64,000 nucleotides of DNA. Origin: an uncultured Methanosarcinales archaeon (lineage in GTDB: Archaea > Nanobdellota > Nanobdellia > Woesearchaeales > CAZPJY01). A model generated the notes under the pieces. That model had not been told where the DNA came from, made no database searches, and was given only the letters and a program-made list of their open reading frames with translations. The stretch covers positions 699 to 64,698 of the forward strand of contig CAZPJY010000004.1 in NCBI GenBank assembly GCA_964587045.1, in the 5' to 3' direction. The position numbers and the translations under genes were made by a program. Positions 3,271-44,046 of this stretch are shown here, piece after piece. Every line of letters starts with the position of its first letter. Positions within the stretch are counted from its first letter, which is position 1.

Positions 3271-4572
3271 ATGGGAATATACATGCAAATAAATGATGCC
3301 ATCAAGAAGGGCACTGGTAAAGACGTCGCCATCCGCGGTTGGGTTTGGCGCGAGCGCGGCTCGAACAAGCTGCGCTTCATCACGGTGCGCGACTCGACGA
3401 ATGTCATCCAGTGCGTGGTCGTAAAAGACGAGGTTTCGCCCGAAGTGTGGGAGACCGCACAGAAGACGCCCATCGAGACCTCGCTGAAGGTCACGGGCAC
3501 TCTCCGCGAGGACAAGCGCGCGCCGACTGGCTTCGAGATCGGCGTGAAGGCTATAGAAATCGTGGGCGAGAGTGACACTTATCCCATCACCAAGGACCAG
3601 AGTCCAGAGTTCCTGCTGGACAAGAGGCACCTGTGGATCAGGAGCAGGAAGCTCACAGCGGTAATGAAGGTCAGGAGCACAGTCACCGGCGCAATCCACG
3701 AGTTCTTCAGGAGCAGGGGATATTACGAGTTCACTCCCCCCATATTCACGCCGAACGCCTGTGAGGGCGGCTCGACCCTGTTTGAGGTGAAGTACTTCAA
3801 CGAAAAGATTTACCTCACACAGAGCTGGCAGCTGTACGCTGAAGCCGCCATATTCGCGCTCGAGAAGATCTATGACGTCTCACCCACATTCAGGGCAGAG
3901 AAATCTAAGACCTCTAGGCACCTCACGGAGTTCTGGATGGCTGAGATGGAGGCCGCATGGATGGACCTCAAGGAGGTCACGGAAGTGGCCAAGGAGGAGA
4001 TCAGGTTCATCATCAGGAAGGTGCTCGAGAAGAACGAGGCCGAACTTCGGTTCCTTGGACAGGATGTCGAGAAGCTAAAGCTGGTAGCAGAGAAGGACTT
4101 CCCGACCATAACCTACACTGAAGCTCTGAAAATCCTCAAGGAGAAGTCCAAGATGGATGTGGAGTGGGGCAAGGACCTGAGAACCGTCGAGGAGGACAAG
4201 CTGATGGAGCACTTCGATACGCCTGTCGTCGTGGTTGAGTACCCAAAGGAGGTCATGGCTTTCTACAAGCCCGCAGACCCAAAAGACCCAAAGACCGCGC
4301 TCTGCTTCGACATGATCGCGCCTGAGGGCTACGGCGAGATTATCGGCGGCTCACAGAGGGATACGGACCTCAAAGCGCTGATGGATGGCTTAAAGAAGGA
4401 GGGTGAGCCTATCGAGAACTACGACTGGTACCTTGACCTGAGGAGGTACGGCTCTGTTCCCCATTCAGGCTACGGGCTGGGAGTGGAGAGGGTTGTGTCG
4501 TGGCTTTGCAAGCTTGACAACATCAAGGATGCGATACCGTTCCCCAGGACCATGCTGAGGAAATCCCCATGA
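3271..4572 (+). CDS. asnS: Class IIb aminoacyl-tRNA synthetase, most consistent with asparaginyl-tRNA synthetase (archaeal AspRS not excluded)
   Basis: Motif 2 FRAEKSKTSRHLTEFWMAEME matches the AsnRS-like EFWMxExE pattern. Motif 3 GGSQRD...GYGLGVERVVSWL...IPFPR is also present. The N-terminal OB anticodon-binding domain is recognisable. Confidence 0.6.
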   Translation: MGIYMQINDAIKKGTGKDVAIRGWVWRERGSNKLRFITVRDSTNVIQCVVVKDEVSPEVWETAQKTPIETSLKVTGTLREDKRAPTGFEIGVKAIEIVGESDTYPITKDQSPEFLLDKRHLWIRSRKLTAVMKVRSTVTGAIHEFFRSRGYYEFTPPIFTPNACEGGSTLFEVKYFNEKIYLTQSWQLYAEAAIFALEKIYDVSPTFRAEKSKTSRHLTEFWMAEMEAAWMDLKEVTEVAKEEIRFIIRKVLEKNEAELRFLGQDVEKLKLVAEKDFPTITYTEALKILKEKSKMDVEWGKDLRTVEEDKLMEHFDTPVVVVEYPKEVMAFYKPADPKDPKTALCFDMIAPEGYGEIIGGSQRDTDLKALMDGLKKEGEPIENYDWYLDLRRYGSVPHSGYGLGVERVVSWLCKLDNIKDAIPFPRTMLRKSP

Positions 4573-5501
4573 GGCTTATGCAAAACCCTTCGAAGGAGGC
4601 GCGTATGCATACCGCCGAACACATCCTCTTCAGGGCTCTCCAGCTCCAGGATGAGCAGGTCAAGCTGGACAAGATCAAGCTGGGAGAAGACGAGAGCTCC
4701 TTTTACATATCATCTGAAAATCTCGACTGGGAAAAGGTCCTCAAGGCTGAGGAACAGGCAAACAGGATAGTGGACGAGAAGAGGAAAGTGTCTGAAGAGC
4801 AGGTCCCGAAAGCCGAAGCGGCGAAGATGAAAGAGCTTCGCATAAAGCTCGAGAGGATAAAGGAAAACACGGTGCGCGTGATAAGGATTGAGGATTACGA
4901 CCTCTCAGCCTGCTCCGGCGACCACTGCGCAAGCACAGGACTGGTCGGCAACATCTTGGTCACGAGGTTCAACTCGATGGGCGGCGGCAGGTACCAGGTC
5001 AGGTACAAGATCGGCGCGCTGAGCGACCTGTACGAGATGGCCGGGGTTGCGAGGCTGGCTTCGGAGGCTCTCGGCACGGAGATGGGGCATGTCACCAAGG
5101 CCCTTCGCAACCTAATAAGTGACGAGGAGAACTACAGGAACAGGTACAGGGAGCTCTCAAAGGATGCCATAAAGGAGGTCAACAGGGAAAAGGTAGGCAC
5201 GGTGGACCTCATACACAGCGTCTATGAAGATCTGGAGCACAAGCAGCTCGTCGAGAGCGCCGGACAGCACGCATCGGACTCAACGGTGGTATGCTTCTTC
5301 AACAAGAAGCGGGACCAGGCACAAGTCATTATCAGCACCAAGCATCCAAAACTGCGGGCAGACGAGCTCCTGAAGATAGTCTTCGAGCTAGGCGGCAAAG
5401 GCGGCGGCAGGGAGAACTTCGCGATGGGGAGCGTGGGACTAGACCATATTGAGACGGTCCTATCTGAGATCAAGCGCATCATCAGCGAGACTATCCGTTG
5501 A
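4569..5501 (+). CDS. alaX: AlaX-M type alanyl-tRNA editing protein (AlaRS editing domain plus DHHA1 domain)
   Basis: Zn-binding motifs HTAEH and CSGDHC, plus a C-terminal GGKGGGR DHHA1-like motif. The start overlaps the asnS stop (ATGA). Confidence 0.65.
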   Translation: MRLMQNPSKEARMHTAEHILFRALQLQDEQVKLDKIKLGEDESSFYISSENLDWEKVLKAEEQANRIVDEKRKVSEEQVPKAEAAKMKELRIKLERIKENTVRVIRIEDYDLSACSGDHCASTGLVGNILVTRFNSMGGGRYQVRYKIGALSDLYEMAGVARLASEALGTEMGHVTKALRNLISDEENYRNRYRELSKDAIKEVNREKVGTVDLIHSVYEDLEHKQLVESAGQHASDSTVVCFFNKKRDQAQVIISTKHPKLRADELLKIVFELGGKGGGRENFAMGSVGLDHIETVLSEIKRIISETIR

Positions 5502-6306
5502 GGTATGAGAATATAGGATCCTCCATCTTCACAAGGCTTTCTATGGTGGCCTTGAATCTCTTGACATCATCGCCGAAGTATAATGCCCTGATCTCAGTCC
5601 CCTTCTCCGCAACTCCCATCATAATGCTCATGAAGCTGATGGGGTTCATGACTGTGTTGCCCTTCAGGAGCCGTGCCTCGTCTATCTCATACCCTGAAAA
5701 AGCCTTGACGACGTGAGCTATGGGCCTCATGTGCAGTCCGTCCTTGTGTGTGACTATGAGGTCTATTGCCGCGTTGGCTTTCTTCATGAGCATTTCAGCT
5801 TCGTAATCGTAGTTTTGGTATTCGATAACCTCACCCAGGTTGCTTGCCATCTCGTCTAGGACCTTCTTTACCTTGTGGTGGCCTTTTGGGTTCTTAGCAT
5901 ATAGCTTCAATAGCTCATGCTTGGTGAAAGGCCCTGCGGCCTCCCATTGGCTGGGGCTGCGGGGATCAAAAGCGAACCTGTTTGAAAGTCCCACAAGGTC
6001 TATCTCGGGATACTTGTCAGCAATCCCAGCCATTATGTGGTACTCCACCTCCTCAAGGTTGTGGTTCAGAATCACATCCATCTGAGAATAGTCATGCAGT
6101 ATCACTTCGAGAACGTCACCAATCTTTTGGGTCGGTATAGTCCGCCTGCAGTGTTCACAGTTACTTATCGCTTCAGAGCAGTCGTGCCCCTTGTCAATGA
6201 GGCTGGTGAAGACATCGACTAGTTCGGGACTCTCCTGCATCAGTTTTCGAGCGTTTGCCTTGATGCGTTCGTCAGTAATCCTAAGCTTTTTGAATAGCTC
6301 TTCCAT
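5491..6306 (-). CDS. Fusion protein: N-terminal domain of unknown function (about 185 aa, CxxC...CxxC) plus C-terminal HPr-like phosphocarrier domain
   Basis: The C-terminal about 85 aa align to HPr: GLHMRPIAHVVKAF versus the GLHxRPAAxFVK active-site His15 region; ISFMSIMMG versus the KSIMG Ser46 region; and a terminal ...LVKM. Confidence 0.55.
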   Translation of the reverse strand: MEELFKKLRITDERIKANARKLMQESPELVDVFTSLIDKGHDCSEAISNCEHCRRTIPTQKIGDVLEVILHDYSQMDVILNHNLEEVEYHIMAGIADKYPEIDLVGLSNRFAFDPRSPSQWEAAGPFTKHELLKLYAKNPKGHHKVKKVLDEMASNLGEVIEYQNYDYEAEMLMKKANAAIDLIVTHKDGLHMRPIAHVVKAFSGYEIDEARLLKGNTVMNPISFMSIMMGVAEKGTEIRALYFGDDVKRFKATIESLVKMEDPIFSYLNG

Positions 6307-6354
6307 TGTGATTCCGCCTATAAAACCTTAAATATTTAAGGGTTTCTTACGATC

Positions 6355-6906
6355 GTGATGATATATATCTTCGATCTTGACAACACACTGCTTGACAGCC
6401 GCACAAACGCTCTAGTCTACGCTAAAGTTATCGAGAACCTGGTATCCAAGGGTTACGACCCCTTGATGATCAATGAGGAAGTGAAAATAATAAAGGCCGA
6501 GACACTCGGAGAAGGACGGGCATGTGCTTCTGCTCTGTGTGGGAGGCTTGAGTGTCCCAGCCTTTATTTATTTGTGTTGGGTAGTGTAGTGGGGGAGCGT
6601 GATAGCGTGACAAAGCTTTTTGACACCTTCCGCGAGATGCGTCGGGAGGTGGGCATCGTCAGCTCTCTTGACAGGAGGACGCTTGGGTTCCTCCTGCAGC
6701 GCTATGGCATCAAACCCGGATGGGTTTTTTGTGGGGGCGATAAGACCAGCGTCCAGTTCTGGCATTCCCTGAAGGAAAACCATGGTTTGGAACCCAAAAG
6801 CTGCCGGGTTGTCAGCGACGAGGCGCTTGAGGCCCCTCGGCAGCTGGGTTTCCGGACGCTGCGTGTGGAGGCGCCGATCGACTACCGGCACCTCAAACTT
6901 ATGTAG
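6355..6906 (+). CDS. HAD-superfamily hydrolase
   Basis: Motif I IFDLDNTLLD (DxDxT) at the N-terminus; small HAD-like size. Confidence 0.65.
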   Translation: MMIYIFDLDNTLLDSRTNALVYAKVIENLVSKGYDPLMINEEVKIIKAETLGEGRACASALCGRLECPSLYLFVLGSVVGERDSVTKLFDTFREMRREVGIVSSLDRRTLGFLLQRYGIKPGWVFCGGDKTSVQFWHSLKENHGLEPKSCRVVSDEALEAPRQLGFRTLRVEAPIDYRHLKLM

Positions 6907-10593: not shown

Positions 10594-11009
10594 TGAAAAT
10601 GATCGGAAAACCTGAATGGTTCACCTACCGCATAGCAGGATGGGGGCTCAGGCCCAAGACCAAGGAAGGATGGGCTTACATTGCGGTCGCAATCCTGCTC
10701 TTCTGGGGAGCAAGCATGATGCCAGTTCCGCTGAAGTGGTACGGCATCGGGATACTGGCAGCCATTTTGATAATGGACGCAATCCACATAATGCTCAACA
10801 TGGGCAGGAAACACGACGAGAGGGAGAGGTACCACCAGCTCCTGATCGAGCGAGCGGCATCCTTCGCAGGAGTTGTCGCTGTAGTCGCCGTGGCGCTTTA
10901 TCAGATGTTCCTGATCGGGGAACAGCCAGATACGAGCCTCATCATAATACTGGTTGCCATGGCCTTGACGAAGTTCACCGCATGGGCGTATGTCAAGCTG
11001 AAGATGTAA
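10593..11009 (+). CDS. Small membrane protein (3-4 TM) paired with the XRE regulator
   Basis: Hydrophobic helices. The ATG overlaps the XRE stop (TGATG), a common XRE plus membrane-protein two-gene module. Confidence 0.45.
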   Translation: MKMIGKPEWFTYRIAGWGLRPKTKEGWAYIAVAILLFWGASMMPVPLKWYGIGILAAILIMDAIHIMLNMGRKHDERERYHQLLIERAASFAGVVAVVAVALYQMFLIGEQPDTSLIIILVAMALTKFTAWAYVKLKM

Positions 11010-11041
11010 CTTTTTTATACTTCTTTCCCATCACCATCCCC

Positions 11042-12397
11042 ATGGACATCAAGGTGGGACTCGAAATCCACGGGTACCTCAGGACAGAACAGAAGCTCTT
11101 CTGCACCTGTGAGATAGACAGGACCGCGGAGCCAAACACCACGATCTGCCCTGTCTGCACCTCCCAGCCAGGGGCACGGCCGATGCTCCCAAACAAGGAG
11201 GCTGTTGACACCATAATCGCAATAGCCCTCATGCTGGGCTGCAGGCTCAACAAGACCCTGATGTTCCAGCGCAAGCACTACTCCTGGCCTGACCTACCTT
11301 CAGGCTACCAGCGCACCATGTCAGGCTCCTACTCACTGCCCGTTGGGACGGACGGAGAGTTCCTCGGCATCGGGATTGAGGAGGTCCATCTCGAGGAGGA
11401 CCCAGCGGCTTGGGACCCAAACACAGGGCTCGTAGACTACAACAGGAGCGGCTACCCGCTGGTCGAGATAGTAACCAAGCCCGACTTCTCCTCGCCAGAC
11501 CAGCTGAGGGAATGGCTGAAGAGGCTCATCACGACCCTATCATACGTCAAGGCCCTGGATAAGGATGCCGGCATCAAGAGCGACGTCAACGTCTCGATAG
11601 CACCTGATTTCAGGAGGGTCGAGATTAAGAACGTCAACTCGTTCAGGTCCATTGTACGGGCAGTCGAGTACGAGGCCCACCGGCAGAAGAGCGAGAAAGT
11701 GAAGAAGCAGCACACCCGTGCCTGGGACGACAAGGTCGGCGCCACCGTGTTCATGCGCGACAAGGAGACCGCTGAGGATTACATGTTCATCCCCGAGCCC
11801 GATCTCCCTGTAATCCATGTCGATGACAGGTGGAGGAAGACAATAGAGTCCAGCCTTCCTGAGCCGCCCTCGGCAAAGAGGAAGAGATACCTGAAGTTGG
11901 GCCTTGACGAGATCCATGCCGAGTCGATCTCCTCAGACCTGGCCCTGGCCGACATCTTCGAGACCGCCGCAGAGGAGGTGGACCCTGTGCTTGCGGCGAA
12001 GTGGGTCAAAAGGGAGGTCGTGAGGGTCGCTAACTACAACAAGATCGACAGCGAAGACCTCAATCTGGACAGGGCACAGTTCACCAAGCTGCTTAGTATG
12101 GTGGAGGCCAAACGCATCACGGAGAAGGTCGCAAAAGAGTTCCTGGAAAGGCTCGTGAAAAAGTCGTTTGACGTAGAAAAAGAAGTTAAGAAGCTGGGCC
12201 TAGAATCGGTGCGGGATGCTGCGCAGATCGAAAGGTGGTGCGAGGAGTCCATCCGGGAGAACCCGAAAGTCGTCGATGATGTCAAGTCAGGCAAGGAGAA
12301 CGCCGTCAACTTCCTGGTAGGACGGGTGATGCGGAAGAGCAGGGGGACGGCGTCGCCTGAAGAAGTGAAAAAGATTATCAAAGAGATTATTTCATAA
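11042..12397 (+). CDS. gatB: Asp-tRNA(Asn)/Glu-tRNA(Gln) amidotransferase subunit B
   Basis: N-terminus MDIKVGLEIHGYLRTEQKLFCTCE is a GatB hallmark. C-terminal YqeY-like tail NFLVGRVMRKSRGTASPEEVKKIIKEII. 451 aa. The listed 593-aa ORF has a spurious N-terminal extension. Confidence 0.85.
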   Translation: MDIKVGLEIHGYLRTEQKLFCTCEIDRTAEPNTTICPVCTSQPGARPMLPNKEAVDTIIAIALMLGCRLNKTLMFQRKHYSWPDLPSGYQRTMSGSYSLPVGTDGEFLGIGIEEVHLEEDPAAWDPNTGLVDYNRSGYPLVEIVTKPDFSSPDQLREWLKRLITTLSYVKALDKDAGIKSDVNVSIAPDFRRVEIKNVNSFRSIVRAVEYEAHRQKSEKVKKQHTRAWDDKVGATVFMRDKETAEDYMFIPEPDLPVIHVDDRWRKTIESSLPEPPSAKRKRYLKLGLDEIHAESISSDLALADIFETAAEEVDPVLAAKWVKREVVRVANYNKIDSEDLNLDRAQFTKLLSMVEAKRITEKVAKEFLERLVKKSFDVEKEVKKLGLESVRDAAQIERWCEESIRENPKVVDDVKSGKENAVNFLVGRVMRKSRGTASPEEVKKIIKEIIS

Positions 12398-16552: not shown

Positions 16553-17743
16553 ATGGCAGAGAGGAGATTCTCAGACTTGCTTAGGCTGTTGAGGAGCCTG
16601 TCTAAGAAGGAGCAGGTCCTAATCGCAGCTGTCAGCCAGCACCTCGAGCCTCCTGACCTCTCAAGGGTCAGAAAGCTCCTCAAACAACGCAAGGTGAAGC
16701 TGTTCTACGAGACCCTCGGCATCTCTGACAAGTTTTTCAGCACGCAGGAATATCCCCAGCTGGACCCCCAGGAAGGGCTGGACGATGAGATGAAGAAGTG
16801 GGTGCGTCTCATCAACAAGAAAATCCGCGCCGATGTCGAGGAGAAGGCGTTCGCCGCCTTTGCAAAGATAGCCAAGGAGACCATCCCGCTGTTCATAGCC
16901 CCTGACATCGTCGGCCTCGACACCATCAAGCAGGCAGCAGCCTTGCAGCTGTTCTCAACAGAGAGGTTCCACATCCTCCTGCTCGGGGACCCTGGCACAG
17001 GGAAGACCGACATCATCAGATCGGCAGCTCAGCTCGCGCCTATAAGCGCTTTCGGGCTGGGCTCAGGCGCCACCAAGGCAGGCCTGTCCATGACCTACAA
17101 GGGAGGCAAGGCTGAGCCTGGCCTGCTACCCTTGGCAGACCAGGGGCTGTGCGCCATAGACGAGCTCAACCTGATGAAGGAGGCTGACCGCGCCGCGCTC
17201 TACAACGCGATGGAGAAGGGTTTCGTCTCCTACCACAAGGCCGGCAAGAACGACACGATGGACGCCCGCATCAGCGTGCTGGCGACAGGGAACCCGAAAG
17301 GCGACAGGTTCGTCGGCAGGGTGGTTGATGTCCTCAGGAGCCAGCTGCCCTTCGATTCCGCGCTGCTGACCAGGTTCCACCTGGTATTCCTCGTGCGCAA
17401 GCCAGACATCAAGAGGTTCCTCGAGATCACGAAGCGGATCGTCACGTCCGACATCCCGAAGAGGCCGAACGACTCCGCATTCGTCAAGAACTACATCTCC
17501 TACGCAAGAGACCTCAATGTGGAGTTCCCCAGCTCGTTCGAAAAGCAGGTGGTGGCATTCGCCAGGTCTCTTAAGGAGCGGGAAAAACAGTTCATAGTCG
17601 AGATATCCCCCAGGATTGTCGTCGGCATCATCAAGCTCGCCAAGGCCTCAGCCAGGATGGAGCTGCGAGACAAGGTCACGATACAGGACCTCAACAGCGT
17701 ATTCAGGATTGTCGAGGAGAGCCTGGTCGTCAAGAAAGATTAA
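16553..17743 (+). CDS. MCM-family AAA+ ATPase lacking the canonical MCM N-terminal OB/Zn domain (mini-MCM)
   Basis: Walker A ILLLGDPGTGKTD; Walker B CAIDELNLM. ADRAALYNAMEKGFVSYHKAGKNDTMDARISVLATGNP aligns with the MCM [21 protein letters not shown]...ARTSILAAANP block. Arg-finger region LLTRFHLVFLV. Only 396 aa. Confidence 0.7.
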   Translation: MAERRFSDLLRLLRSLSKKEQVLIAAVSQHLEPPDLSRVRKLLKQRKVKLFYETLGISDKFFSTQEYPQLDPQEGLDDEMKKWVRLINKKIRADVEEKAFAAFAKIAKETIPLFIAPDIVGLDTIKQAAALQLFSTERFHILLLGDPGTGKTDIIRSAAQLAPISAFGLGSGATKAGLSMTYKGGKAEPGLLPLADQGLCAIDELNLMKEADRAALYNAMEKGFVSYHKAGKNDTMDARISVLATGNPKGDRFVGRVVDVLRSQLPFDSALLTRFHLVFLVRKPDIKRFLEITKRIVTSDIPKRPNDSAFVKNYISYARDLNVEFPSSFEKQVVAFARSLKEREKQFIVEISPRIVVGIIKLAKASARMELRDKVTIQDLNSVFRIVEESLVVKKD

Positions 17744-19536: not shown

Positions 19537-20484
19537 ATGGGGAAGGTTATTCCGAAAGCTGATTTCAACAGGTGGCTTCGCAAGCTTTCTAGGAAATACG
19601 AACTGATCGGGCCTGTCAAGTCAGACCTGGTTAGATACTCGAATTTTGAGAGGCTCGAGGACCTGGAGCTGAGCGAGCTGCCCTACTACTCCTTCAAGCG
19701 GTACTTCTTCCCGCCCAAAGAGGAGCTCTTCTCATTTTCGAAAGACAGGGTGAAGCTTCCAAAGGTCAAGGCGCAAAGGAGGATCATCATAGGCGCTCCC
19801 CTAGCTGACATCAACGCCTTGAGGGTGATGGACAAGATATTCCTCGGCGACTACAAGGACGAAGGGTACGCCGAAAGGAGGAAGAACACGCTGCTGGTGG
19901 GATACGCCGACTTCCAGCCTGACGAGTACTGCTTCTCCAGCTCGTTCGACCAGGAGCCCTGCTACGACCTGATGCTCCACGAAAAAGGTGACAGCTTCTA
20001 CGTCGAGGTCGGCAGCGAAGCGGGACGAAAGCTAGTCCGAGGATTCAAGGAAGGCCAAGCCCCGAAGAAGAAGAAAATGGTCTTCCAAAAGAAGCTCGAG
20101 GTAAAGGACATCAAAGCCCACTACGACAGCCCCAAATGGGACAAGGAGGCAGAAAAATGCCTCGGCTGCGCCGGCTGCACCATCATTTGCCCAACCTGCG
20201 CGTGCTTCAACGTCTTCGACGACGCCAACTTCGACTTCATATCCGGAACTCGGTTCAAGGAGTGGGAGACGTGTGACGCCAAGAACTTCACGACGGTCGC
20301 GGGCAACTTCGCATTCAGGGATGACAGGTCGTCGAGGATGAAGCACAGGATATACCACAAGATGGTCTATTATCATGACTCCTTCGGAGGCTACATGTGC
20401 GTCGGCTGCGGCAGGTGCCTGCGCGTATGCCCTGTGGGCATAGACTTCGTCAAGGTATCTAACTCATTCAAGAGGAAAAAATGA
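19537..20484 (+). CDS. hydB: Sulfhydrogenase (group 3b [NiFe] hydrogenase) beta subunit, 4Fe-4S protein
   Basis: CLGCAGCTIICPTCACFNV and CVGCGRCLRVCPVG cluster motifs, collinear with Pyrococcus HydB. The start is set at the ATG at 19537, about 25 nt downstream of a ttttatata TATA box. The listed ORF begins at 19468. Confidence 0.75.
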   Translation: MGKVIPKADFNRWLRKLSRKYELIGPVKSDLVRYSNFERLEDLELSELPYYSFKRYFFPPKEELFSFSKDRVKLPKVKAQRRIIIGAPLADINALRVMDKIFLGDYKDEGYAERRKNTLLVGYADFQPDEYCFSSSFDQEPCYDLMLHEKGDSFYVEVGSEAGRKLVRGFKEGQAPKKKKMVFQKKLEVKDIKAHYDSPKWDKEAEKCLGCAGCTIICPTCACFNVFDDANFDFISGTRFKEWETCDAKNFTTVAGNFAFRDDRSSRMKHRIYHKMVYYHDSFGGYMCVGCGRCLRVCPVGIDFVKVSNSFKRKK

Positions 20485-21272
20485 GCGGGAAGGAATACGA
20501 ACCAAGACAGGTAGAGATCCTCAAGGTCGTCGACGAGACGCCTGATACCAAGACATTCAGGCTTAAGACGAGGATCAATCTGCTGCCCGGCCAGTTCGTC
20601 GAGGCCAGCGTGCTCGGCATCGGAGAGGCGCCGATATCCAACTGCTCTTACAACGGAGAATTCCTCGAGCTCATGATACGCGATGTCGGGAATGTCACGC
20701 ACGCGATCCACCAGCTCAAGGCAGGAGACAAGCTGTGGATACGAGGCCCGTACGGGCACGGCTACCCGATGGAGGAGATGAAGCACAAGAACATCCTGGT
20801 CGTGGCTGGCGGCACAGGCGCTGCCCCTCCCCGCTCAGTGCTGCAGTATGTTGAGCATCACAGGAGAGACTACGGCGACGTGAGGGCGATCATAGGATTC
20901 CGGAGCCCAAAAGACCTCATATTCAAGTACGATTTCGAGAGGTTCTCGCGTCTGTTCGACTTCACAGTGACCGTCGACAAGGGAGACGACACCTGGAATG
21001 GAAAGGTCGGGCTGGTGACCCAAATACTCGAAGAGAAGAAGGTGCCTGCCCAGAACACTGCCGTGGTGACGTGCGGACCGCCGATAATGATCAAATTCGT
21101 CATACAATCGCTGAAGAAGCTCGGTTTCTACGACAGCCAGATCTACGTGAGCTACGAGAGGCACATGCGCTGCGGGCTTGGGCACTGCGGCCACTGCATC
21201 TTCAGCGACAAGTACATATGCAAGGACGGGCCGGTGTTCCGGTACGACCAGGTCAAGGAGTTGCATGACTGA
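20481..21272 (+). CDS. hydG: Sulfhydrogenase gamma subunit (FAD/NAD(P)-binding, 2Fe-2S)
   Basis: A ferredoxin-NADP reductase-like fold with GGTGAAP and a C-terminal CGLGHCGHC cluster motif. Confidence 0.75.
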   Translation: MSGKEYEPRQVEILKVVDETPDTKTFRLKTRINLLPGQFVEASVLGIGEAPISNCSYNGEFLELMIRDVGNVTHAIHQLKAGDKLWIRGPYGHGYPMEEMKHKNILVVAGGTGAAPPRSVLQYVEHHRRDYGDVRAIIGFRSPKDLIFKYDFERFSRLFDFTVTVDKGDDTWNGKVGLVTQILEEKKVPAQNTAVVTCGPPIMIKFVIQSLKKLGFYDSQIYVSYERHMRCGLGHCGHCIFSDKYICKDGPVFRYDQVKELHD

Positions 21273-22066
21273 TGAAGCCTAAAGTGGGAATATTCGGTGT
21301 GACCTCATGCATGGGGTGCATGCTCACCGTGCTTTTCGACGAGCACCTGCTCAAGATAGTCGAGCTGATAGACCTCAGGGCTTGGCACCTGGCGAAGGAG
21401 AAGAACGATCCGGGCCCATTCGACATCGTGATATGCGAAGGGACCATTGTCAACAAGGAGGACCTGGAATACGTAAAGAAGCTGAGGGAGAAGGCCGGGT
21501 TCCTCATCTCGCTCGGAGCGTGCGCTGTCCATGGCAACATGCCTGCCATGAAGAACTTGATGAGCCGCTACGAGGTCGAGCACTCAGTATATGACAGGAA
21601 GATCGACTCACATCCCATCAATCCGGCGCCGCTCTCCAAGCATGTCGATGTCGATTACGAGATTCCCGGCTGCCCTCCTGCCAAGGACGAGATAAGGAGC
21701 GTACTAAAGGACCTGCTCCTGGGCAGGAAGCCCCACAGGATCGAGCGGCCCGTGTGCTTCGAGTGCCGCTTAAGGGAGAACAGGTGCCTGCTCAACGACG
21801 GAATCCCTTGCATGGGACCACTGACCCAGGCCGGATGCCATGCCCTCTGCCCATCGGTGAACCACCCCTGCACAGGATGCAGGGGGCCAATCGGAGACTC
21901 AAACTACGCCTCGGAATTCTCCAAGCTACTGGAGTTAGGCTACGACAAGGATTTCATCATGAAGAAGATGAGCAAGTACGCGGCGCCTGACGTCAAGGAG
22001 AAGCTGACGAAAGTCAGGATGGGCGAGTCGGAGCGCGTGAGACGAACTGTGAGGAAGCTCAGATGA
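21272..22066 (+). CDS. hydD: [NiFe] hydrogenase small (delta) subunit
   Basis: N-terminus GIFGVTSCMGCM...; cysteine ligands GCPP, CFEC and CTGCRG. The start overlaps the hydG stop (TGATG). Confidence 0.8.
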   Translation: MKPKVGIFGVTSCMGCMLTVLFDEHLLKIVELIDLRAWHLAKEKNDPGPFDIVICEGTIVNKEDLEYVKKLREKAGFLISLGACAVHGNMPAMKNLMSRYEVEHSVYDRKIDSHPINPAPLSKHVDVDYEIPGCPPAKDEIRSVLKDLLLGRKPHRIERPVCFECRLRENRCLLNDGIPCMGPLTQAGCHALCPSVNHPCTGCRGPIGDSNYASEFSKLLELGYDKDFIMKKMSKYAAPDVKEKLTKVRMGESERVRRTVRKLR

Positions 22067-23346
22067 CAGTAATAAAGCTCAACCACATCTGCAAGGTCGA
22101 GGGGCACGCCAAGTTACATCTGAATATCGAGAGGGGCAAGGTAAAGACGTGCGAGCTCGCCGTGACCGAAGGCGCGCGCTTCTTCGAAGGTCTGCTCAAG
22201 GGCAAGCACTACTCCGACGCAAAGGAGATCACGTCACGCATATGCGGCATCTGCAGCTGCGGGCACGTGGTAGCGAGCCTGAAGGCGACGGAAGCGGCGT
22301 TCGGCCTGGAGGTTAGCAAGCAGACCGACGTGCTGCGCGAGCTCCTCACCATGGGAGAACGCATCAGGAGCCACGCGACCCACATGTACCTGCTCGCGCT
22401 TCCCGACTACCTGGGCTACGACTCCGCCATCGCGATGGCTGCAAAGTACAAGACCGAGGTCAGCAGGGCCCTGAAGATTGTGGGCGTTGGCAACAAGATG
22501 GTCGAGACCGTCGGCGGGAGGGAGATGCATCCTGTGAGCCCAGTCGTCGGAGGCTTCACCCATGTGATCAACAAGAAGGAGCAGGGCTTCCTCATAGACC
22601 AGCTGCACTCCATAAGGAAGGACTGTGAGAAGTCAGCAGAGCTCTTCTTGTCTTTGGACTACCCCAGGTTCGAGCATGATATCGAGAATATCTCGCTCCT
22701 GCAGCAGGAGAAGTTCCCGCTGATCCATGGGATCATAATATCCAACAGGGGGGTCTCGTTCGAGCCGCAGGACTACAAAAAGTTCATCGCCGAGCACATC
22801 AACCACTACTCGAACGCCAAGTTCGCAACCCGGGACGGCAAGGGATACCGTACCAACGCCCTTGCGAGGGTAAATCTCAACTATGAGCTGCTGGGCAACA
22901 AAGAGAAGGAGATGGTCTCCAAATCAAAGTACTCGTTCCCTTCGGTCAACCCCTTCCTGAACAACGCGGCGCAGGGCCTCGAGCTCATGCACTGGACAGA
23001 CCGGGCCATCGAGATGCTCGAGGGCTTCGAGTTCGGTCCAGAAGAGGTCCTCAAGCCTTCAGTAGGTGAGGGGAGGGGTGTAGGTGTTGTGGAGGTTCCA
23101 CGTGGCATCCTGATCCACGACTACACCCATGACAAGAAGGGATTCATCAAGCGCGCAAACATCATCACGCCCACCGTCCAGATGCTGCAGGGCATGCAGG
23201 ACGGCATCACCCTGTACGTCGAGCATCTGCTGAGAGAGAAGAGCATGACCAACGAGAAGCTCGTGCTCGAGATAGAGAAGCTCATACGCGCGCACGACCC
23301 GTGCTTTTCGTGCTCATGCCACTTCTTAGAGGTCGACTGGAGCTAG
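22063..23346 (+). CDS. hydA: [NiFe] hydrogenase large (alpha) subunit
   Basis: N-terminal RICGICSCGH (RxCGxCxxxH) and C-terminal DPCFSCSCH (DPCxxCxxH) nickel-binding motifs. Confidence 0.85.
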   Translation: MTVIKLNHICKVEGHAKLHLNIERGKVKTCELAVTEGARFFEGLLKGKHYSDAKEITSRICGICSCGHVVASLKATEAAFGLEVSKQTDVLRELLTMGERIRSHATHMYLLALPDYLGYDSAIAMAAKYKTEVSRALKIVGVGNKMVETVGGREMHPVSPVVGGFTHVINKKEQGFLIDQLHSIRKDCEKSAELFLSLDYPRFEHDIENISLLQQEKFPLIHGIIISNRGVSFEPQDYKKFIAEHINHYSNAKFATRDGKGYRTNALARVNLNYELLGNKEKEMVSKSKYSFPSVNPFLNNAAQGLELMHWTDRAIEMLEGFEFGPEEVLKPSVGEGRGVGVVEVPRGILIHDYTHDKKGFIKRANIITPTVQMLQGMQDGITLYVEHLLREKSMTNEKLVLEIEKLIRAHDPCFSCSCHFLEVDWS

Positions 23347-29074: not shown

Positions 29075-29470
29075 ATGACAATGACTGAAGAGAAGAAAAA
29101 CAATCTTGCTAACTACGTCATGACATCGTTTTTCAGCGCACTCGTTGGAGCAGCGCTGGCCAGCGGGTACTTTTACTTGAACCAGAGAAGCGGCTCAGAC
29201 CTGGAGATCACCATCGAAAATCCGATAGTGCAGATAAAGGACCAGGGCAAGGTAATCAAAGGAAAAGCCCCCCTGAGCGAGAGCAGAAACATCCTCGATT
29301 TATTCACCGGGCACAGGGCTGACAAGTGGATCAAGTTCGAGGACGAAGGTTACATAATCTACTGGGATTACAACAACGACGGGAAATACGACAGGTACAA
29401 GTCCGTCTACAAGCAGGGGTCCATCGAAGAGAAATTCAAGGAAATCCAGACTGACAGCACCGGACGCTAG
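29075..29470 (+). CDS. Small membrane-anchored protein, paralog 3 of 3
   Basis: TM helix followed by KGKAPLSESR...NNDGKYDRY. The start is set at the ATG at 29075, just after the paralog 2 stop. Confidence 0.4.
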   Translation: MTMTEEKKNNLANYVMTSFFSALVGAALASGYFYLNQRSGSDLEITIENPIVQIKDQGKVIKGKAPLSESRNILDLFTGHRADKWIKFEDEGYIIYWDYNNDGKYDRYKSVYKQGSIEEKFKEIQTDSTGR

Positions 29471-30639
29471 CGGACCAGCGTGACAGTCTCCTTGGCTATC
29501 TCAAGCTCCTCGTTCGTCGGGATGACGAACACCTTAACTTTCGAGCCCTTGGCAGATATGACTCTGGCGTTGCGCCTGTTGGCATTGGCGTCTAACCTCA
29601 CTCCCATATGCTTAAACCTTGACAGGACCTTAGCTCTGGTACCCCACTCATTCTCGCCTATGCCTCCAGTGAATACGATGCAGTCCAGGCCTTCAAGAAC
29701 GGTCGCATAGGCACCGATGAAGAACGCTATCCTGTAGGCGAGCATGTCAAGAGCGAGCTCTGCCCTATCATTTCCCGATTTGGCTGCCTGGACCAGCTCC
29801 CGGACATCCGAGCTGATGCCAGAGATGCCCTTGAGGCCTGATTTCTTGTTGAGATAATTGGACAGCTCGTCCGGTTTGAAGTGTTTCTTCTTAATGAGGT
29901 ATATGGGAATCTCAGGGTCCAGCTCTCCACTTCGAGTGCCCATGATCAGCCCGTCCAGCGGTGTGAATCCCATGGTCGTGTCAACGCTCTTCCCGTCCTT
30001 TATCGCCGTGATTGACGAGCCGTTCCCGAGATGGCAGGTGATCATCTCGTGGCTCTTGCGCTTGAGCATCTTGGCCGCCTCGCGGCTGACGTATTTGTGG
30101 GAGGTACCATGGAAGCCGTATTTCCTTATCTTGTATTTCTGGTAGAGCTCGAGGGGTATGCCATAAAGGTAGGCCTCCTCCGGGATGGTCTGGTGGAATG
30201 CTGTGTCGAAGACGGCCACCTGCGGCACCTTGGGCATCACCTTCATGCACGCTTTGATACCTGCAAGGTTTGGGGGGTTGTGGAGGGGTGCAAGCTCGAA
30301 GAGCTCCTTGATGCGCTTGATGACCTCACCGTCGATTAGCGTCGGTCCATGATAGTATTCCCCGCCGTGCACGACTCGGTGGCCAACAGCCTTGATGTCA
30401 TCGATGTCCTCAAGCACCTTTGATCTTATCAGAAATTCCAGGGCGAAATGAACCGCCTCTGCGTGGTCCTTTATCAGCTCCTTCTCCTCTACCTTCTTGT
30501 TGCCGTACGATAACTTCACCGTGCACCGGTCCAGTCCGATGCCATCGACATGCCCCTTGAAGAGGAGAGCCCCTTCCGGCATCTCCAGAAGCTGGTATTT
30601 CAAGGAGCTTGATCCTGAGTTCAGGACGAGGACCTTCAC
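29467..30639 (-). CDS. ackA: Acetate kinase
   Basis: (M)KVLVLNSGSSSLKYQL N-terminus and other acetokinase motifs. The probable GTG start at 30637-30639 overlaps the pta TGA (GTGA). The listed ORF extends to an ATG at 30705. Confidence 0.8.
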   Translation of the reverse strand: MKVLVLNSGSSSLKYQLLEMPEGALLFKGHVDGIGLDRCTVKLSYGNKKVEEKELIKDHAEAVHFALEFLIRSKVLEDIDDIKAVGHRVVHGGEYYHGPTLIDGEVIKRIKELFELAPLHNPPNLAGIKACMKVMPKVPQVAVFDTAFHQTIPEEAYLYGIPLELYQKYKIRKYGFHGTSHKYVSREAAKMLKRKSHEMITCHLGNGSSITAIKDGKSVDTTMGFTPLDGLIMGTRSGELDPEIPIYLIKKKHFKPDELSNYLNKKSGLKGISGISSDVRELVQAAKSGNDRAELALDMLAYRIAFFIGAYATVLEGLDCIVFTGGIGENEWGTRAKVLSRFKHMGVRLDANANRRNARVISAKGSKVKVFVIPTNEELEIAKETVTLVR

Positions 30640-31616
30640 CTTCCCACCGCCTGAGCCTGAATCACTGTTATGGCCGTTATCCCGTAAACGTCGTCGACTG
30701 AGCACCCTCGGGAGAGGTCGTTGACAGGCCTTCTGATGCCCTGGATTATGGGACCAAGGGAGGTGACCTGGCCGATTCTTTGTGTTATCTTGTAGGCAAT
30801 GTTGCCAGCGTCCAGGTTGGGGAATATGAAGACGTTTGCCTTCCCCCCAATTGGGGAATCAGGGCATTTCTTCTGGGCCACTTTCTCGACGTATGCTGCA
30901 TCGAACTGCAGCTCCCCGTCAAGCAGTAGGTCCGGGGCGCGCTCCTTTGCAATCCTGGTCGCCTCGACGACCTTGTCGACCATGGGGTGCTTGGCGCTTC
31001 CGTGCGTCGAGAAGGAAAGCATCGCAACCCTGGGTTCGATGCCGAAAAACTTGGCCGATTCAGCGGTTGCGAGAGCGATGTCGGCGAGCTCCTCAGGATT
31101 GGGATCAATGACAAACCCGCAATCTGCATAGAACATCAGTCCCTGATCGGATATCTCGAAGAAGAAGCTCGATGCAAGCTTCCTCCCCTCAGCGGTCTTG
31201 AGTATCTGAAGCGCAGGCCTAAGCGTGTGGGCTGTGGGATGGGAAGCACCGGATATCAAGCCGTCAGCCTCACCCAGATGGACCATCATGGTCCCCCAAT
31301 AGATTGGCTCTGCAACCATCTTCCTTGCGTCGTCGATTAGTGCTAGCTTGCCCTTGCGGAGCTCCATGAACTCCTTGGCAAAGCTCTCCACGTCGCCTTT
31401 GGCTGGATCCACTATCTGGATGTCACCGAGGTCGAGATTGAGCGAGGCTGCCTTGGCCCTCGTAGTCTCTTCAGGACCCACGAGTATTGGGACAGCTATG
31501 CCATCATTCTTCACGCGCAGGGCTGCCTTGAGAATGCGTTCGTCCTCAGTTTCTGGGAATACTATGCGCTTTGGCTCCTTGCGAGCTTTCTCGATTAGAT
31601 TGGACAGGAAATCCAT
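30636..31616 (-). CDS. pta: Phosphotransacetylase (short, about 326 aa form)
   Basis: N-terminus MDFLSNLIEKARKEPKRIVFPETEDERILKAA and conserved Pta core. Translationally coupled to ackA. Confidence 0.8.
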   Translation of the reverse strand: MDFLSNLIEKARKEPKRIVFPETEDERILKAALRVKNDGIAVPILVGPEETTRAKAASLNLDLGDIQIVDPAKGDVESFAKEFMELRKGKLALIDDARKMVAEPIYWGTMMVHLGEADGLISGASHPTAHTLRPALQILKTAEGRKLASSFFFEISDQGLMFYADCGFVIDPNPEELADIALATAESAKFFGIEPRVAMLSFSTHGSAKHPMVDKVVEATRIAKERAPDLLLDGELQFDAAYVEKVAQKKCPDSPIGGKANVFIFPNLDAGNIAYKITQRIGQVTSLGPIIQGIRRPVNDLSRGCSVDDVYGITAITVIQAQAVGR

Positions 31617-32494: not shown

Positions 32495-34918
32495 GTGGAC
32501 TTATTGGAAGATAAGGATAATACATTCATTCTCTGGTTTGATCAACTCAATATCCAAGATATCAAGTATGTTGGAGGGAAGAACGCGTCCCTTGGGGAGA
32601 TGTACAGGAACCTGTCCTCACTCGGTGTGAATGTCCCCAATGGATTCGCGATCACAGCCAGGGCCTACAGGTATTTCCTGGAGCACAACAAGATACCCGA
32701 CAAGATCCACGAGATACTGGCAGACCTTGACACCGGCAACATGAACAACCTGTCTGAGAAAGGTTACAAGATAAGGCATATGATCATCAACGCAGAATTC
32801 CCCGAAGACCTAAAGGAGGCGATAATCGGAGCGTACAAGGCGTTATGCAACTCCTATCAGACCGAACTCGTGGACGTTGCGGTCAGGAGCTCAGCGACAG
32901 CGGAGGATCTCCCCGACGCCTCTTTTGCTGGGCAGCAGGAGACCTATCTCAACATAAGGGGCTCGTACAACATCGTCCATTCAGTAAAGAAATGCTTCGC
33001 ATCCCTATTCACAAATAGGGCCATATCCTACAGGGTGGACAAGAAATTCGACCACTTCTCAGTCGCGCTGTCTGTCGGGATACAGAAGATGGTGAGATCA
33101 GACAAGGCCTGCTCAGGAGTGATGTTCTCCCTCGACACAGAATCTGGGTTCAGGGATGTGGTCCTCATCAATGGCATCTACGGCCTCGGCGAGAACATCG
33201 TCCAGGGAGCGGTTAACCCTGACGAGTTCCTGGTCTTCAAGCCTACGTTGAAGAACGGATTCAGGCCGATAATCGAGAAGAAGCTGGGCGGAAAGCGCAT
33301 CAAGATGGTCTACAGCCAGGAAGGTGTGGAGTCAGTAAAAAACGTGCCGGTCGACATCAATGACAGAAAGAGTTACGTGCTGAACGATGACGAAATCCTC
33401 ACGCTCGCCAGGTGGGCGATGGTTATCGAAGAACATTACACCAAGGTCAGGGGGAAGGATACCCCCATGGATATGGAGTGGGCGAAGGATGGTGAGCTCA
33501 ACAAGCTGTTCATAGTGCAGGCCAGACCAGAGACTGTCCACTCTCAGAGGGACGCGACCAAGCTCACTGAATATGTCCTCAAGGGCAAGGGGACAGTTCT
33601 GGTCAGAGGCACATCTGTCGGGAACAAGATCGGAAAAGGCAAGGTCGCCATAATCAAGGATGTGCACAATATTAACCAATTCAAGAAGGGAGAGGTCCTC
33701 GTGACAGAGATGACCGACCCGGACTGGGAACCTATTATGAAGATTGCCGGCGCGATAGTGACCAACCGCGGAGGGAGGACCAGCCATGCCGCCATCATCT
33801 CCCGCGAGCTTGGGATACCCTGCGTTGTGGGCACGCAGACAGGCACCGAGATTCTCAAGAGCGGCCAGGAGGTCACTGTCGACTGCTCGAAGGGCGAGAA
33901 CGGTCATGTATATGAAGGGCTCATCGATTTCGAGTTGCTCCAGCAGGACCTCTCAGAAATACCCAAACCCAAGACAGCGATCATGATGAATGTGGGCAAC
34001 CCAGAGCAGGCCTTCCACCATAGCTTCATACCCAACTCTGGGGTGGGACTGGCAAGGGAAGAGTTTGTGATCAATTCGTACATCAAAATCCACCCCTTGG
34101 CTCTTATCAAGTTCGACGAGCTCACCAATGAGGAGGTAAGGTCGCAGATTCTTGAGCTGACTTCGGGCTATGAGGACAAGAAGCAGTACTATGTCGACAA
34201 GCTCTCCTATGGTATCAGCATCATCGCATCCGCCTTCTATCCAAAGGACGTAATCGTTCGCCTGAGCGATTTCAAGAGCAACGAGTACGCGAATCTGATA
34301 GGTGGGAAGCTCTTCGAGCCGACTGAGGACAATCCGATGATCGGGTGGAGGGGCGCATCCAGGTACTATGCTGAAAAGTACAAGGAGGCCTTCGCACTGG
34401 AGTGCAAGGCGCTCCAGAAGGTGAGGGATGAGATGGGCCTCACCAATGTCAAGATCATGGTGCCTTTCTGCCGCACGGTGGAGGAGGGCAGGAAGGTCCT
34501 GCACGAAATGGAGAAGAACGGACTCAAGCAGGGAGAGAATAACCTTCAGGTCTATGTCATGTGCGAGATCCCCTCCAATGTCATTCTCGCCGACCAGTTC
34601 TGCGATATCTTTGACGGATTCTCAATCGGCACAAACGACCTCACCCAGCTCACCCTCGGACTGGATAGGGACTCTGAGCTTGTGTCCCACATCTACGATG
34701 AGAGGAACGACGCTGTCAAACGTCTGGTGTCGATGGTCATCAAGACAGCCCGTGAGAGGCACCGTAAGATTGGCATATGCGGCCAGGCACCCAGTGATTT
34801 CCCCGAGTTCGCTGAGTTCCTTGTAGAGCAGGGAATAGATTCGATTAGCCTGAATCCTGATACTGTGATAAGGACCACGATGCGGATCGCCGAGAAAGAG
34901 CAGCAGTTGGGCCGTTAG
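32495..34918 (+). CDS. ppsA: Phosphoenolpyruvate synthase (pyruvate, water dikinase)
   Basis: N-terminal ILWFDQLNIQDIKYVGGKNASLGEM, a central phosphohistidine domain (GGRTSHAAIISRELGIPCVVG) and a C-terminal PEP-utilising TIM-barrel domain. 807 aa. GTG start. Confidence 0.85.
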   Translation: MDLLEDKDNTFILWFDQLNIQDIKYVGGKNASLGEMYRNLSSLGVNVPNGFAITARAYRYFLEHNKIPDKIHEILADLDTGNMNNLSEKGYKIRHMIINAEFPEDLKEAIIGAYKALCNSYQTELVDVAVRSSATAEDLPDASFAGQQETYLNIRGSYNIVHSVKKCFASLFTNRAISYRVDKKFDHFSVALSVGIQKMVRSDKACSGVMFSLDTESGFRDVVLINGIYGLGENIVQGAVNPDEFLVFKPTLKNGFRPIIEKKLGGKRIKMVYSQEGVESVKNVPVDINDRKSYVLNDDEILTLARWAMVIEEHYTKVRGKDTPMDMEWAKDGELNKLFIVQARPETVHSQRDATKLTEYVLKGKGTVLVRGTSVGNKIGKGKVAIIKDVHNINQFKKGEVLVTEMTDPDWEPIMKIAGAIVTNRGGRTSHAAIISRELGIPCVVGTQTGTEILKSGQEVTVDCSKGENGHVYEGLIDFELLQQDLSEIPKPKTAIMMNVGNPEQAFHHSFIPNSGVGLAREEFVINSYIKIHPLALIKFDELTNEEVRSQILELTSGYEDKKQYYVDKLSYGISIIASAFYPKDVIVRLSDFKSNEYANLIGGKLFEPTEDNPMIGWRGASRYYAEKYKEAFALECKALQKVRDEMGLTNVKIMVPFCRTVEEGRKVLHEMEKNGLKQGENNLQVYVMCEIPSNVILADQFCDIFDGFSIGTNDLTQLTLGLDRDSELVSHIYDERNDAVKRLVSMVIKTARERHRKIGICGQAPSDFPEFAEFLVEQGIDSISLNPDTVIRTTMRIAEKEQQLGR

Positions 34919-35890: not shown

Positions 35891-36874
35891 ATGTATGATA
35901 TTATCACTATGGGTTCTGCTACCGTAGACGTCTTTGCCAAGACCAAATCGGAGCTCATCACCATTGAGACAGGCACCGAGAAAGAACAGCTGATTGCCTA
36001 CCCCAGCGGCCACAAGATCCTCATCACAGACCTGCAGTTCATGGTGGGAGGAGGCGGAACCAACACCGCGGTGGCTTTCTCAAGGCTTGGCCTCAATACA
36101 GGGTACATCGGCAGGCTGGGCAAGGACACGAACGCAAACCTAATCCTCGACCTACTCGAAAAGGAGAAGATAAATTTCCTCGGATCCCAAGACAGCAAAT
36201 CCAAGACAGGATACTCGATAATACTGGACAGCATAGAAAGGGACAGGACCATACTCACATTCAAGGGGGCAAACAACACCCTGACAGACTTCGACACAAA
36301 AAAGATCAAGACCAAGTGGTGCTATTTCTCCTCCATGGTCGGCGACTCCTTCGAGACCCAGAAGAAGATTGCAAAATACGCTTACAAGAACAAGATAAAA
36401 ATCGTTTACAACCCGAGCAACTATCAGGCCGAAAAAGGGCCTGAATTCCTCAAGGAATTGCTAACAAGGGCCACAATCCTGATTCTAAATCTTCAGGAGG
36501 CACAGTACCTGGTTGGCAAGAGGAACGATGACAACTTGCTGAGAGCCCTGCACAGTTTAGGACCGAAAGTTGTCGTCGTGACCAATGGGAACAAAGGATC
36601 CATCGCAAGTGATGGCACAACGCATTACATGATTACACCTCACCAACTTGAGATAACAGAAACCACAGGTGCTGGAGACGCGTTCGCATCAGGATTCGTG
36701 GCAGGTTATATAATGAACAGCGACATGACAACCTCATTACAGATGGGGCTGGCCAACGCCGAATCAGTGGTCACCAACTACGGCGCAAAAAACATACTGC
36801 TGACCAAGAGCCAGATTGAGCGGCGCATCAAGGACGAACCCGGCAGCGTCGAAACAAGGAAGTTAGAGGAATGA
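35891..36874 (+). CDS. PfkB-family carbohydrate/nucleoside kinase (ribokinase-like)
   Basis: Di-Gly motif MVGGGGTNTAVAF and C-terminal TGAGDAFASGFVAGY signature. Overlaps the downstream aldolase start (ATGA). Confidence 0.75.
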   Translation: MYDIITMGSATVDVFAKTKSELITIETGTEKEQLIAYPSGHKILITDLQFMVGGGGTNTAVAFSRLGLNTGYIGRLGKDTNANLILDLLEKEKINFLGSQDSKSKTGYSIILDSIERDRTILTFKGANNTLTDFDTKKIKTKWCYFSSMVGDSFETQKKIAKYAYKNKIKIVYNPSNYQAEKGPEFLKELLTRATILILNLQEAQYLVGKRNDDNLLRALHSLGPKVVVVTNGNKGSIASDGTTHYMITPHQLEITETTGAGDAFASGFVAGYIMNSDMTTSLQMGLANAESVVTNYGAKNILLTKSQIERRIKDEPGSVETRKLEE

Positions 36875-43556: not shown

Positions 43557-43955
43557 CTAATCCGGCTTGATTTGTTTCAGTACTTTGTCGCCCATGATGT
43601 CCCAGTAGAGGACGATGGCGGTCTCCTTCACTTCAGCTCTCATGTCCTCAGGAATCTTGATGTCAAAGGTCTCGTAGGTCTCCATGTCCATGACATTCGC
43701 CGTATCACCTGAGATTGACAGGACCTGGGCGTTCTTCTTCTCGATAAGCGGCACCTCGATGTTGTCATGTCCTGGCATGACAATCTGGCGCTTCTTGTCA
43801 TCGATCAAGCCGACGGCTGTGAGTCTGACCTTGGCGTGGCCGTGCTTTCCCGGCCTTGAAACTTGAGTATCGGTCACCTTACAGGCGACACCTTCAACAA
43901 TGACGTACTGCCCTTTCTTGAGGCCTCCTACACTTGTCAATTTCGTAGCCATCAT
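43557..43955 (-). CDS. eif5a: Translation initiation factor 5A (aIF5A)
   Basis: Hypusination loop SRPGKHGHAKV. 131 aa. Tandem ATG ATG start preceded by an AAGGAGG SD. The listed 282-aa ORF is a spurious upstream extension. Confidence 0.85.
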   Translation of the reverse strand: MMATKLTSVGGLKKGQYVIVEGVACKVTDTQVSRPGKHGHAKVRLTAVGLIDDKKRQIVMPGHDNIEVPLIEKKNAQVLSISGDTANVMDMETYETFDIKIPEDMRAEVKETAIVLYWDIMGDKVLKQIKPD

Positions 43956-44046
43956 GAATTCCTCCTTAATTCTTGGGAAACGTATCCCATTTATAAAAGT
44001 TTTGGGAGGATAAAGTATATAAATGGTCCTGTTTTCCTCGAGAGGT

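Follow-up and report, generated by a model that had tools for sequence, protein, structure and literature searches.

A double-HPr protein from an archaeal genome, with a canonical HPr domain and a predicted degenerate HPr fold

Introduction

HPr is a hub of bacterial carbon signalling, and to our knowledge it is almost unknown in archaea outside the haloarchaea and a few PTS-bearing lineages. HPr (PtsH; PF00381, TIGR01003) usually occurs as a free ~88-aa protein whose presence tracks ptsI; the presence of ptsH and that of ptsI are strongly correlated across genomes, and the two genes have been treated as evolving as a single unit (PMC2405797). Soluble regulatory paralogues of HPr, all single-domain bacterial proteins, are NPr of the nitrogen PTS, Crh of Bacillus and the products of the orphan ptsH genes of Bartonella and Ureaplasma, and the known partners of the NPr/Crh-type regulators are EI-Ntr, HPrK/P and CcpA. 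The known archaeal uses of HPr domains are haloarchaeal HPr (NF041319) and DhaM (NF008478; EIIA-Man + HPr + EI-N), in systems that come with EI, EII or DhaKL genes.

Tandem HPr-fold domains within one polypeptide have their nearest architectural precedent in FruB (FPr) of the Pasteurellaceae, for which duplicated HPr domains of the Haemophilus influenzae type are mentioned, after Reizer et al. (1996), in PMC2405797. FruB is a bacterial protein encoded within a fructose PTS operon; it carries EIIA-Fru at its N-terminus, its M-domain is a degenerate EIIA-Fru (PMC2405797), and both of its HPr copies keep the G-L-H-A-R-P motif.

Here we describe a gene in a 64-kb stretch of DNA, the whole of which we call the window, that encodes an HPr domain as the last third of a 271-aa archaeal protein. 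No PTS genes lie near it, in the window or in the flanks of related loci. The original prediction, made from the sequence of the window, took the gene as a hint of a non-PTS phosphorelay or regulatory use of phosphocarrier modules, and our analysis partly supports this interpretation. The protein is a genuine and rare archaeal HPr variant, and in our models it contains a second HPr fold that had previously gone unrecognised.

Results

The gene and its promoter region

The features of the gene and of related loci are collected in Table 1. The reading frame opens with an ATG and closes with a stop codon at 5491-5493 on the minus strand, and the choice of start codon is supported by M1, which does not vary across the alignment of homologues. 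About nine homologues share the length and layout of the protein, and NCBI contains an identical protein (P0001), which is encoded on a 65.5-kb contig and forms a cluster by itself. The stop of the gene overlaps the end of a convergent AlaX-like gene, and a gap of 51 bp separates its start from a divergent HAD-like gene. Read directly, the short intergenic region contains TATAAAA at 6319-6325, followed by a perfect 16-bp palindrome, CCTTAAATATTTAAGG, at 6326-6341. This region may be a bidirectional archaeal promoter or operator, the former being suggested by its spacing to both start codons.

Table 1. Positions of the features of the double-HPr gene in the window, and neighbours of the gene at related loci.
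Feature	Positions	Strand	Basis
Whole gene: 271-aa three-part protein (helical region, predicted degenerate HPr fold, active HPr)	5491..6306	-	ORF list
Residues 1-69: helical N-terminus with 5 helices; conserved motif M-[DEK]-E-L-x-x-I-L-K at the start	6100..6306	-	AF2 models, alignment
Residues 41-53: lineage-specific Cys/His patch, H-D-C43-x6-C50-E-H-C53	6148..6186	-	family alignment
Residues 70-165: predicted degenerate (pseudo-)HPr domain, b-a-b-b-a-b-a topology	5812..6099	-	
Residues 166-178: linker helix joining both HPr folds	5773..5811	-	helix 168-176 in both models
Residues 179-262: canonical HPr domain	5521..5772	-	
Codons H192-M193-R194 (His15 and Arg17 equivalents), CAC-ATG-AGG	5725..5733	-	sequence reading
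S224 codon (Ser46 equivalent)	5635..5637	-	alignment A4: Ser in 10/11 sequences
Divergent intergenic region, 51 bp, common to the HPr and HAD-like genes	6307..6357	.	sequence reading
Neighbours at L008-L010 and L003: Ski2-like helicase, MetRS, HisRS, S-layer protein			
Neighbours at L005, L006 and L011: PAC2 proteasome chaperone, tyrosine recombinase			
Neighbours at L004: GatC, GatA, aaRS-YbaK fusion			
Neighbours at L001 and L002: HAD hydrolase, membrane proteins			

We considered, and rejected as unsupported, a functional link between the gene and its divergent HAD-like neighbour. A HAD neighbour occurs only in the window and at L001, the two HAD proteins share generic motifs only, and the 74%-identical orthologue at L002 is without one.

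The C-terminal part is an HPr domain

Residues 183-260 match PF00381 (PTS-HPr) with E = 4.4e-10 and 39.9 bits, well over the gathering cut-off of 23 bits, and the match runs from profile position 5 to 80 of 81. This search had been named beforehand as the check on HPr homology, which it supports. When the PDB sequences were searched with phmmer, the chains matched were almost exclusively HPr and Crh, and the domain aligned end to end with solved HPr structures; its predicted fold is the open-faced b-a-b-b-a-b-a sandwich that characterises PF00381. The segment G190-L-H192-M-R194-P195 agrees with the G-[LI]-H-x-R-P active-site loop that caps the N-terminus of helix 1, such that H192 (codon CAC, read at 5731-5733) corresponds to His15 and R194 to Arg17, and both residues are invariant in 9/9 family members as well as in the reference HPrs. 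In an alignment with the two reference sequences, S224 lies opposite Ser46 of B. subtilis and E. coli HPr. The interaction surface formed by helix 1 and helix 2 is canonical as well.

By profile, motif and predicted fold, the C-terminal domain is therefore a member of the HPr domain family, and the agreement of Pfam, the PDB search, the reference alignment and the codon reading places this identity far beyond chance. The claim that His15 and Ser46 equivalents are present at the C-terminus thus holds in full. The C-terminal 85 aa share with HPr/PtsH the fold, the G-L-H-x-R-P site, the Ser46 equivalent and the helix-1/helix-2 surface. As a whole, however, the protein falls outside the described classes (TIGR01003, DhaM, FruB/FPr and haloarchaeal HPr) by their curated cut-offs: it scores 34.7 bits against the NCBIfam model TIGR01003 (PTS_HPr_family; cut-off 47.9), 16.1 bits against the haloarchaeal equivalog NF041319 (cut-off 140) and 26.2 bits against DhaM NF008478 (cut-off 520), the latter across the HPr part only. 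With respect to HPr(Ser)/Crh-type regulation, the Ser46 equivalent is present and no HPrK is encoded in the window.

The N-terminal part contains a predicted degenerate HPr fold

The remainder of the protein had been described as an unrecognised, His-rich N-terminal domain of 185 aa with a CxxC...CxxC pattern, and most of this description requires revision. The region is about 178 aa long and its cysteines number three, in the arrangement C-x6-C-x2-C with a single CxxC, while "His-rich" is only mildly true, given 11 His in 271 residues. C43, C50 and C53 are the sole cysteines of the whole protein; they are not conserved in the family, two members of which have no cysteine at all. A metal-binding Cys domain was rejected because the cysteines are only three and are not conserved. 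Nor is the region unrecognised, as modelling indicates a second HPr fold within it.

Sequence searches gave no sign of this fold. The N-terminal region yielded no consistent or significant Pfam match, and among PDB sequences nothing matched either the whole region or its middle domain; the second HPr fold is seen by structure prediction only. We modelled the N-terminal 176 residues alone with AlphaFold2 (AF2), using an input alignment that excluded the HPr domain. The resulting model has a mean pLDDT of 80, with 86-95 over most of residues 71-160, and the AF2 models behind the assignment draw on shallow alignments of 8-9 sequences. After five helices (residues 1-69) there follow a strand (74-80), a helix (86-97), two strands (103-108 and 111-113), a helix (118-124), a strand (132-138) and a helix (146-157), an order (b-a-b-b-a-b-a) that is also that of HPr. 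For this model, the HPr fold is assigned in agreement by two fold-search programs. HPr accounts for every one of the top 24 Foldseek matches (probability 1.00; TM-scores of 0.69-0.86 when normalised to the target), and the structural matches include HPr complexed with glycogen phosphorylase, Rsd, FruR, CcpA and HPrK/P. A profile comparison of the pseudo-HPr region with the C-terminal HPr domain (hhalign) was not significant (E 0.01, probability 4%), yet the alignment is collinear.

In that alignment, E85 and V87 lie opposite His15 and Arg17. Across the family, the position equivalent to His15 in the first copy is occupied by E, K, H, D, E, P, G, D and D, and because of this variation the first copy would be unable to carry phosphate in the manner of HPr. 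Our models thus identify residues 70-165 as a second, degenerate HPr fold without the catalytic His and Arg. Family-invariant residues inside it are L70, F113, W121, Y136 and G158. The most economical reading, and in our view the most likely one, is that the two HPr folds arose by an ancient tandem duplication, after which the active site of the first copy was lost. In the model of the full protein (pTM 0.60), the arrangement of the domains relative to each other is uncertain.

The helical region that precedes the degenerate fold is modelled less confidently (pLDDT 54-82, and below 50 at residues 50-55), and M1, E3, L4 and L8 are conserved within it. Such helices could in principle form a DNA-binding helix-turn-helix, in which case the phosphorylation state of the HPr domain would control DNA binding and the protein would act as an HPr-sensing transcription regulator. 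Single members of the family do match HTH_11, HTH_AraC and HTH_69 weakly (E 0.013-0.17), and the palindrome adjoins the gene in its own putative promoter region, but we regard a role of this kind as improbable.

A small and deeply diverged archaeal family

An exhaustive phmmer search over 1.84 billion representative proteins (E <= 1e-3) returned ten matches, the query included. Seven of the ten, 267-292 aa long, match over the N-terminal part as well as over the HPr domain. Another (P0011) is an ordinary HPr encoded in a bacterial glucitol PTS operon, and the 857-aa P0007 was judged spurious and unrelated, since it is a helical repeat protein that matches residues 28-102 only. Profile searches added one further member (P0012), the rest of their matches being bacterial multidomain HPr proteins with other partners; among these side finds were a 272-aa protein in which a response-regulator receiver domain is fused to HPr (P0015) and a 492-aa EIIA-Fru protein with two active HPr domains (P0013). 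A word-indexed homology search with the full-length sequence recovered nothing but the query, a scan of genome contigs from species representatives with P0001 gave no match, and the same scan with the P0009/P0012 pair gave L012 only. Against a background of some 15 billion predicted proteins, the family is extremely rare, with about ten sequence clusters. A check of the phylogenetic distribution of the fusion, also named beforehand, gave about nine members, a fixed architecture and archaeal neighbourhoods.

Pairwise identity between members is 17-42%, except for one pair at 74%. The residues invariant across nine members are those listed above for the pseudo-HPr domain together with M1, H192 and R194. 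Averaged over all pairs, identity comes to 23% in residues 1-69, 26% in residues 70-165 and 25% in the HPr domain, and these similar values indicate that all three parts are under similar constraint. The closest stand-alone HPr is just 35% identical. One of the family genomes carries the name Candidatus Woesearchaeota, and G+C content is 30-41% at all family loci other than the window.

This degree of divergence bears on whether the gene could be a piece of some bacterial multidomain PTS protein of the FruB or DhaM type that was acquired by recent transfer and is now decaying in an archaeal genome. A bacterial FruB with two HPr domains exists (P0013; PMC2405797), and the best DhaM and FruB profile matches do cover the HPr part. 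However, the reading frame has remained open in about 10 deeply diverged lineages, in each case among archaeal housekeeping genes; no remnant of EIIA is present, the N-terminal profile is unlike the FruB inter-domain region, and even the closest stand-alone HPr is as distant as noted above. We therefore consider a decaying fragment highly improbable.

Gene neighbourhoods

The window encodes eRF1, Nop5, fibrillarin, RFC and MCM, which identify it as archaeal, as had been proposed. It also encodes a 2-oxoacid:ferredoxin oxidoreductase, Ack/Pta, a pfkB kinase and a class II aldolase. Scanning the window against Rfam and for tRNAs returned nothing. The original prediction had seen no EI, EIIA/B/C or DhaKL gene nearby, and this is confirmed: in a Pfam survey that took in about 60 ORFs of the 64-kb window, no member of the EI, EIIA/B/C, DhaK/L/M or HPr kinase families turned up. 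Around the other family loci, too, the flanking DNA contains no PTS or Dha components, and in about 90 kb of these flanks no homologues of PpsA, PPDK_N or EI were found.

All members with genomic context lie among archaeal housekeeping genes. Synteny is kept inside sub-clades, and no partner gene is common to the whole family. The neighbourhood of the gene in the window (3271-5501 and 10616-12397) is of the same type as that of its closest homologue, P0003 (L004, 75-4290): a class II Asp/Asn-type tRNA synthetase and a tRNA-editing protein lie convergent and downstream, and Gat amidotransferase subunits lie upstream, likely as retained synteny. In a marine sub-clade (P0006 and P0008; L008 6962-8172, L009, L010 and L003), the gene always follows a Ski2-like helicase with a DSHCT domain on the same strand, and at L008-L010 a convergent 135-aa ORF runs into the gene at its 3' end, so that the two overlap. 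P0006 is found on nine contigs of up to 141 kb.

These neighbourhoods weigh on the simplest functional explanation, namely that the protein is an ordinary PTS phosphocarrier passing phosphate from EI to EIIA, with EI and EII or DhaKLM encoded elsewhere in the genome and the N-terminal extension serving as decoration. The positions of His15, Arg17 and Ser46 and the helix-1/helix-2 surface are canonical, as such a carrier would have them, and complete PTSs occur in some archaea, including one DPANN lineage (PMC10266531, PMC8100219). On the other hand, the PTS is reported to be rare in DPANN (PMC10266531), the co-occurrence of ptsH with ptsI is strong (PMC2405797), and no PTS or Dha component accompanies the gene in 64 kb of the window or in the flanks of the other loci. 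The haloarchaeal HPr and DhaM models score far under their cut-offs, and the extra 178 aa are conserved as much as the HPr domain, which argues that they are not decoration. On balance, an ordinary PTS role is unlikely.

A PEP synthase and a PPDK_N paralogue in the window

A full-length PEP synthase (PpsA) is encoded at 32600-34918, and a tblastn search with it detected no other PEP-utilizer domain in the window. At 37836-39410 lies a paralogue of its N-terminal domain, a 524-aa protein that consists of the PPDK_N (ATP-grasp) domain and a long acidic C-terminal region, without the His swivel or the PEP-binding domain. The original prediction had noted this paralogue and connected it with the HPr gene. 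The paralogue is real (PF01326, 79.5 bits), but nothing links it to the HPr gene. The two are 31.5 kb apart, and on its own strand the paralogue is preceded by genes for a pfkB sugar kinase and a class II fructose-bisphosphate aldolase (35891-37797). A link of the HPr gene to either the paralogue or PpsA was rejected, as neither the window nor the family flanks give evidence of linkage.

Discussion

The nearest precedent for the protein described here, FruB, differs from it in several respects. Both carry tandem HPr-fold domains in one polypeptide, as P0013 exemplifies for FruB. In FruB, however, EIIA-Fru occupies the N-terminal place, which is taken here by the helical region (no PF00359 match), and both HPr copies keep their active-site motif, whereas E85 and V87 would leave the first copy of the archaeal protein catalytically dead. 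FruB is part of a bacterial fructose PTS operon; the double-HPr protein is archaeal and has no PTS genes nearby. The M-domain of FruB was also considered as a homologue of the N-terminal region and rejected, since no similarity to the FruB inter-domain region was detected. NPr, Crh and the orphan ptsH products are bacterial rather than archaeal and are not known to carry a degenerate HPr copy fused to the active one, and the haloarchaeal PTS and DhaM systems differ in that their EI, EII or DhaKL genes are absent here from the window and the locus flanks. We found no description in the literature of a tandem of a degenerate and an active HPr, nor of an HPr in Woesearchaeota.

Since no sugar-transport partner genes lie nearby, the double-HPr protein is probably a stand-alone phosphate relay or regulator that acts outside sugar transport. 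The architecture is much more secure than the mechanism, and the mechanism could be pictured in a few steps. First, the C-terminal domain would be transiently phosphorylated on His192; the invariance of the His and Arg in otherwise very divergent proteins suggests that this residue is still a phosphoryl carrier. Second, the donor would be a PEP-utilising enzyme encoded elsewhere, either EI-like or, more speculatively, a phosphohistidine domain of the PpsA/PPDK type. Third, the dead copy and the helical region, whose conservation equals that of the active domain, probably serve as a non-catalytic docking or autoregulatory module. Finally, phosphorylation-dependent binding would probably regulate a partner protein rather than sugar uptake, by analogy with the soluble bacterial HPr, NPr and Crh. 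In this overall picture of a soluble, stand-alone archaeal double-HPr protein, with a phosphorylated second copy, a docking dead copy and a regulatory output, we place moderate confidence.

It is also conceivable that phosphorylation plays no part, and that the protein is an adaptor or scaffold in which both HPr folds are protein-binding modules only and His192 is kept for binding. One copy lacks the active site and is still conserved, and bacterial HPr is known to regulate by direct binding, for example to glycogen phosphorylase, Rsd and FruR, complexes of which are among the PDB entries matched by our model. The His and Arg of the second copy are nevertheless invariant in proteins that are otherwise only 17-42% identical, which points to chemistry rather than to surface shape alone, and a purely binding role is accordingly quite unlikely.

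A bolder version of the stand-alone relay would place the donor in the window itself. DPANN-type archaea without a sugar PTS might possess a PTS-independent phosphohistidine relay in which a module of the PpsA/PPDK family charges His192 and the output is exerted by docking. The charging enzyme would be the PEP synthase (32600-34918) or else the PPDK_N paralogue (37836-39410), which in that case would use ATP and serve in trans as a His kinase. The charged protein would dock by means of its dead HPr copy and helical region and so regulate central-carbon enzymes. We consider this version a long shot; were it true, components of the PTS would have given rise to a new kind of metabolic signalling in archaea.

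An intact active site, a fossil HPr copy and the lack of PTS genes nearby together suggest that parts of the PTS have been re-used beyond sugar uptake in small-genome archaea. Should the source genomes have a PTS, the finding would shrink to an unusual HPr architecture. H192 offers a single testable residue with which to ask where HPr obtains its phosphate in the absence of Enzyme I, and the double-HPr protein provides a clear example of a pseudo-domain retained beside its active twin.

A few further genes of the window deserve mention in their own right. Bacterial-type acetate kinase and phosphotransacetylase genes (Ack/Pta), uncommon in archaea, are adjacent at 29467-31616, beside a CBS-domain protein and the PEP synthase. 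The MCM homologue at 16553-17743 is only 396 aa long, with P-loop and lid domains and without the N-terminal domain. At 43557-44351, the longest ORF has 264 aa and its match to aIF5A is confined to residues 136-262; in all likelihood the aIF5A gene itself is far shorter, and ORF calling has added an N-terminal extension that is not real. Finally, four genes at 19537-23346 encode a 4Fe-4S protein, an FAD/NAD-binding subunit and the small and large subunits of a NiFe hydrogenase, a cluster that resembles the cytosolic hydrogenases of the sulfhydrogenase type.
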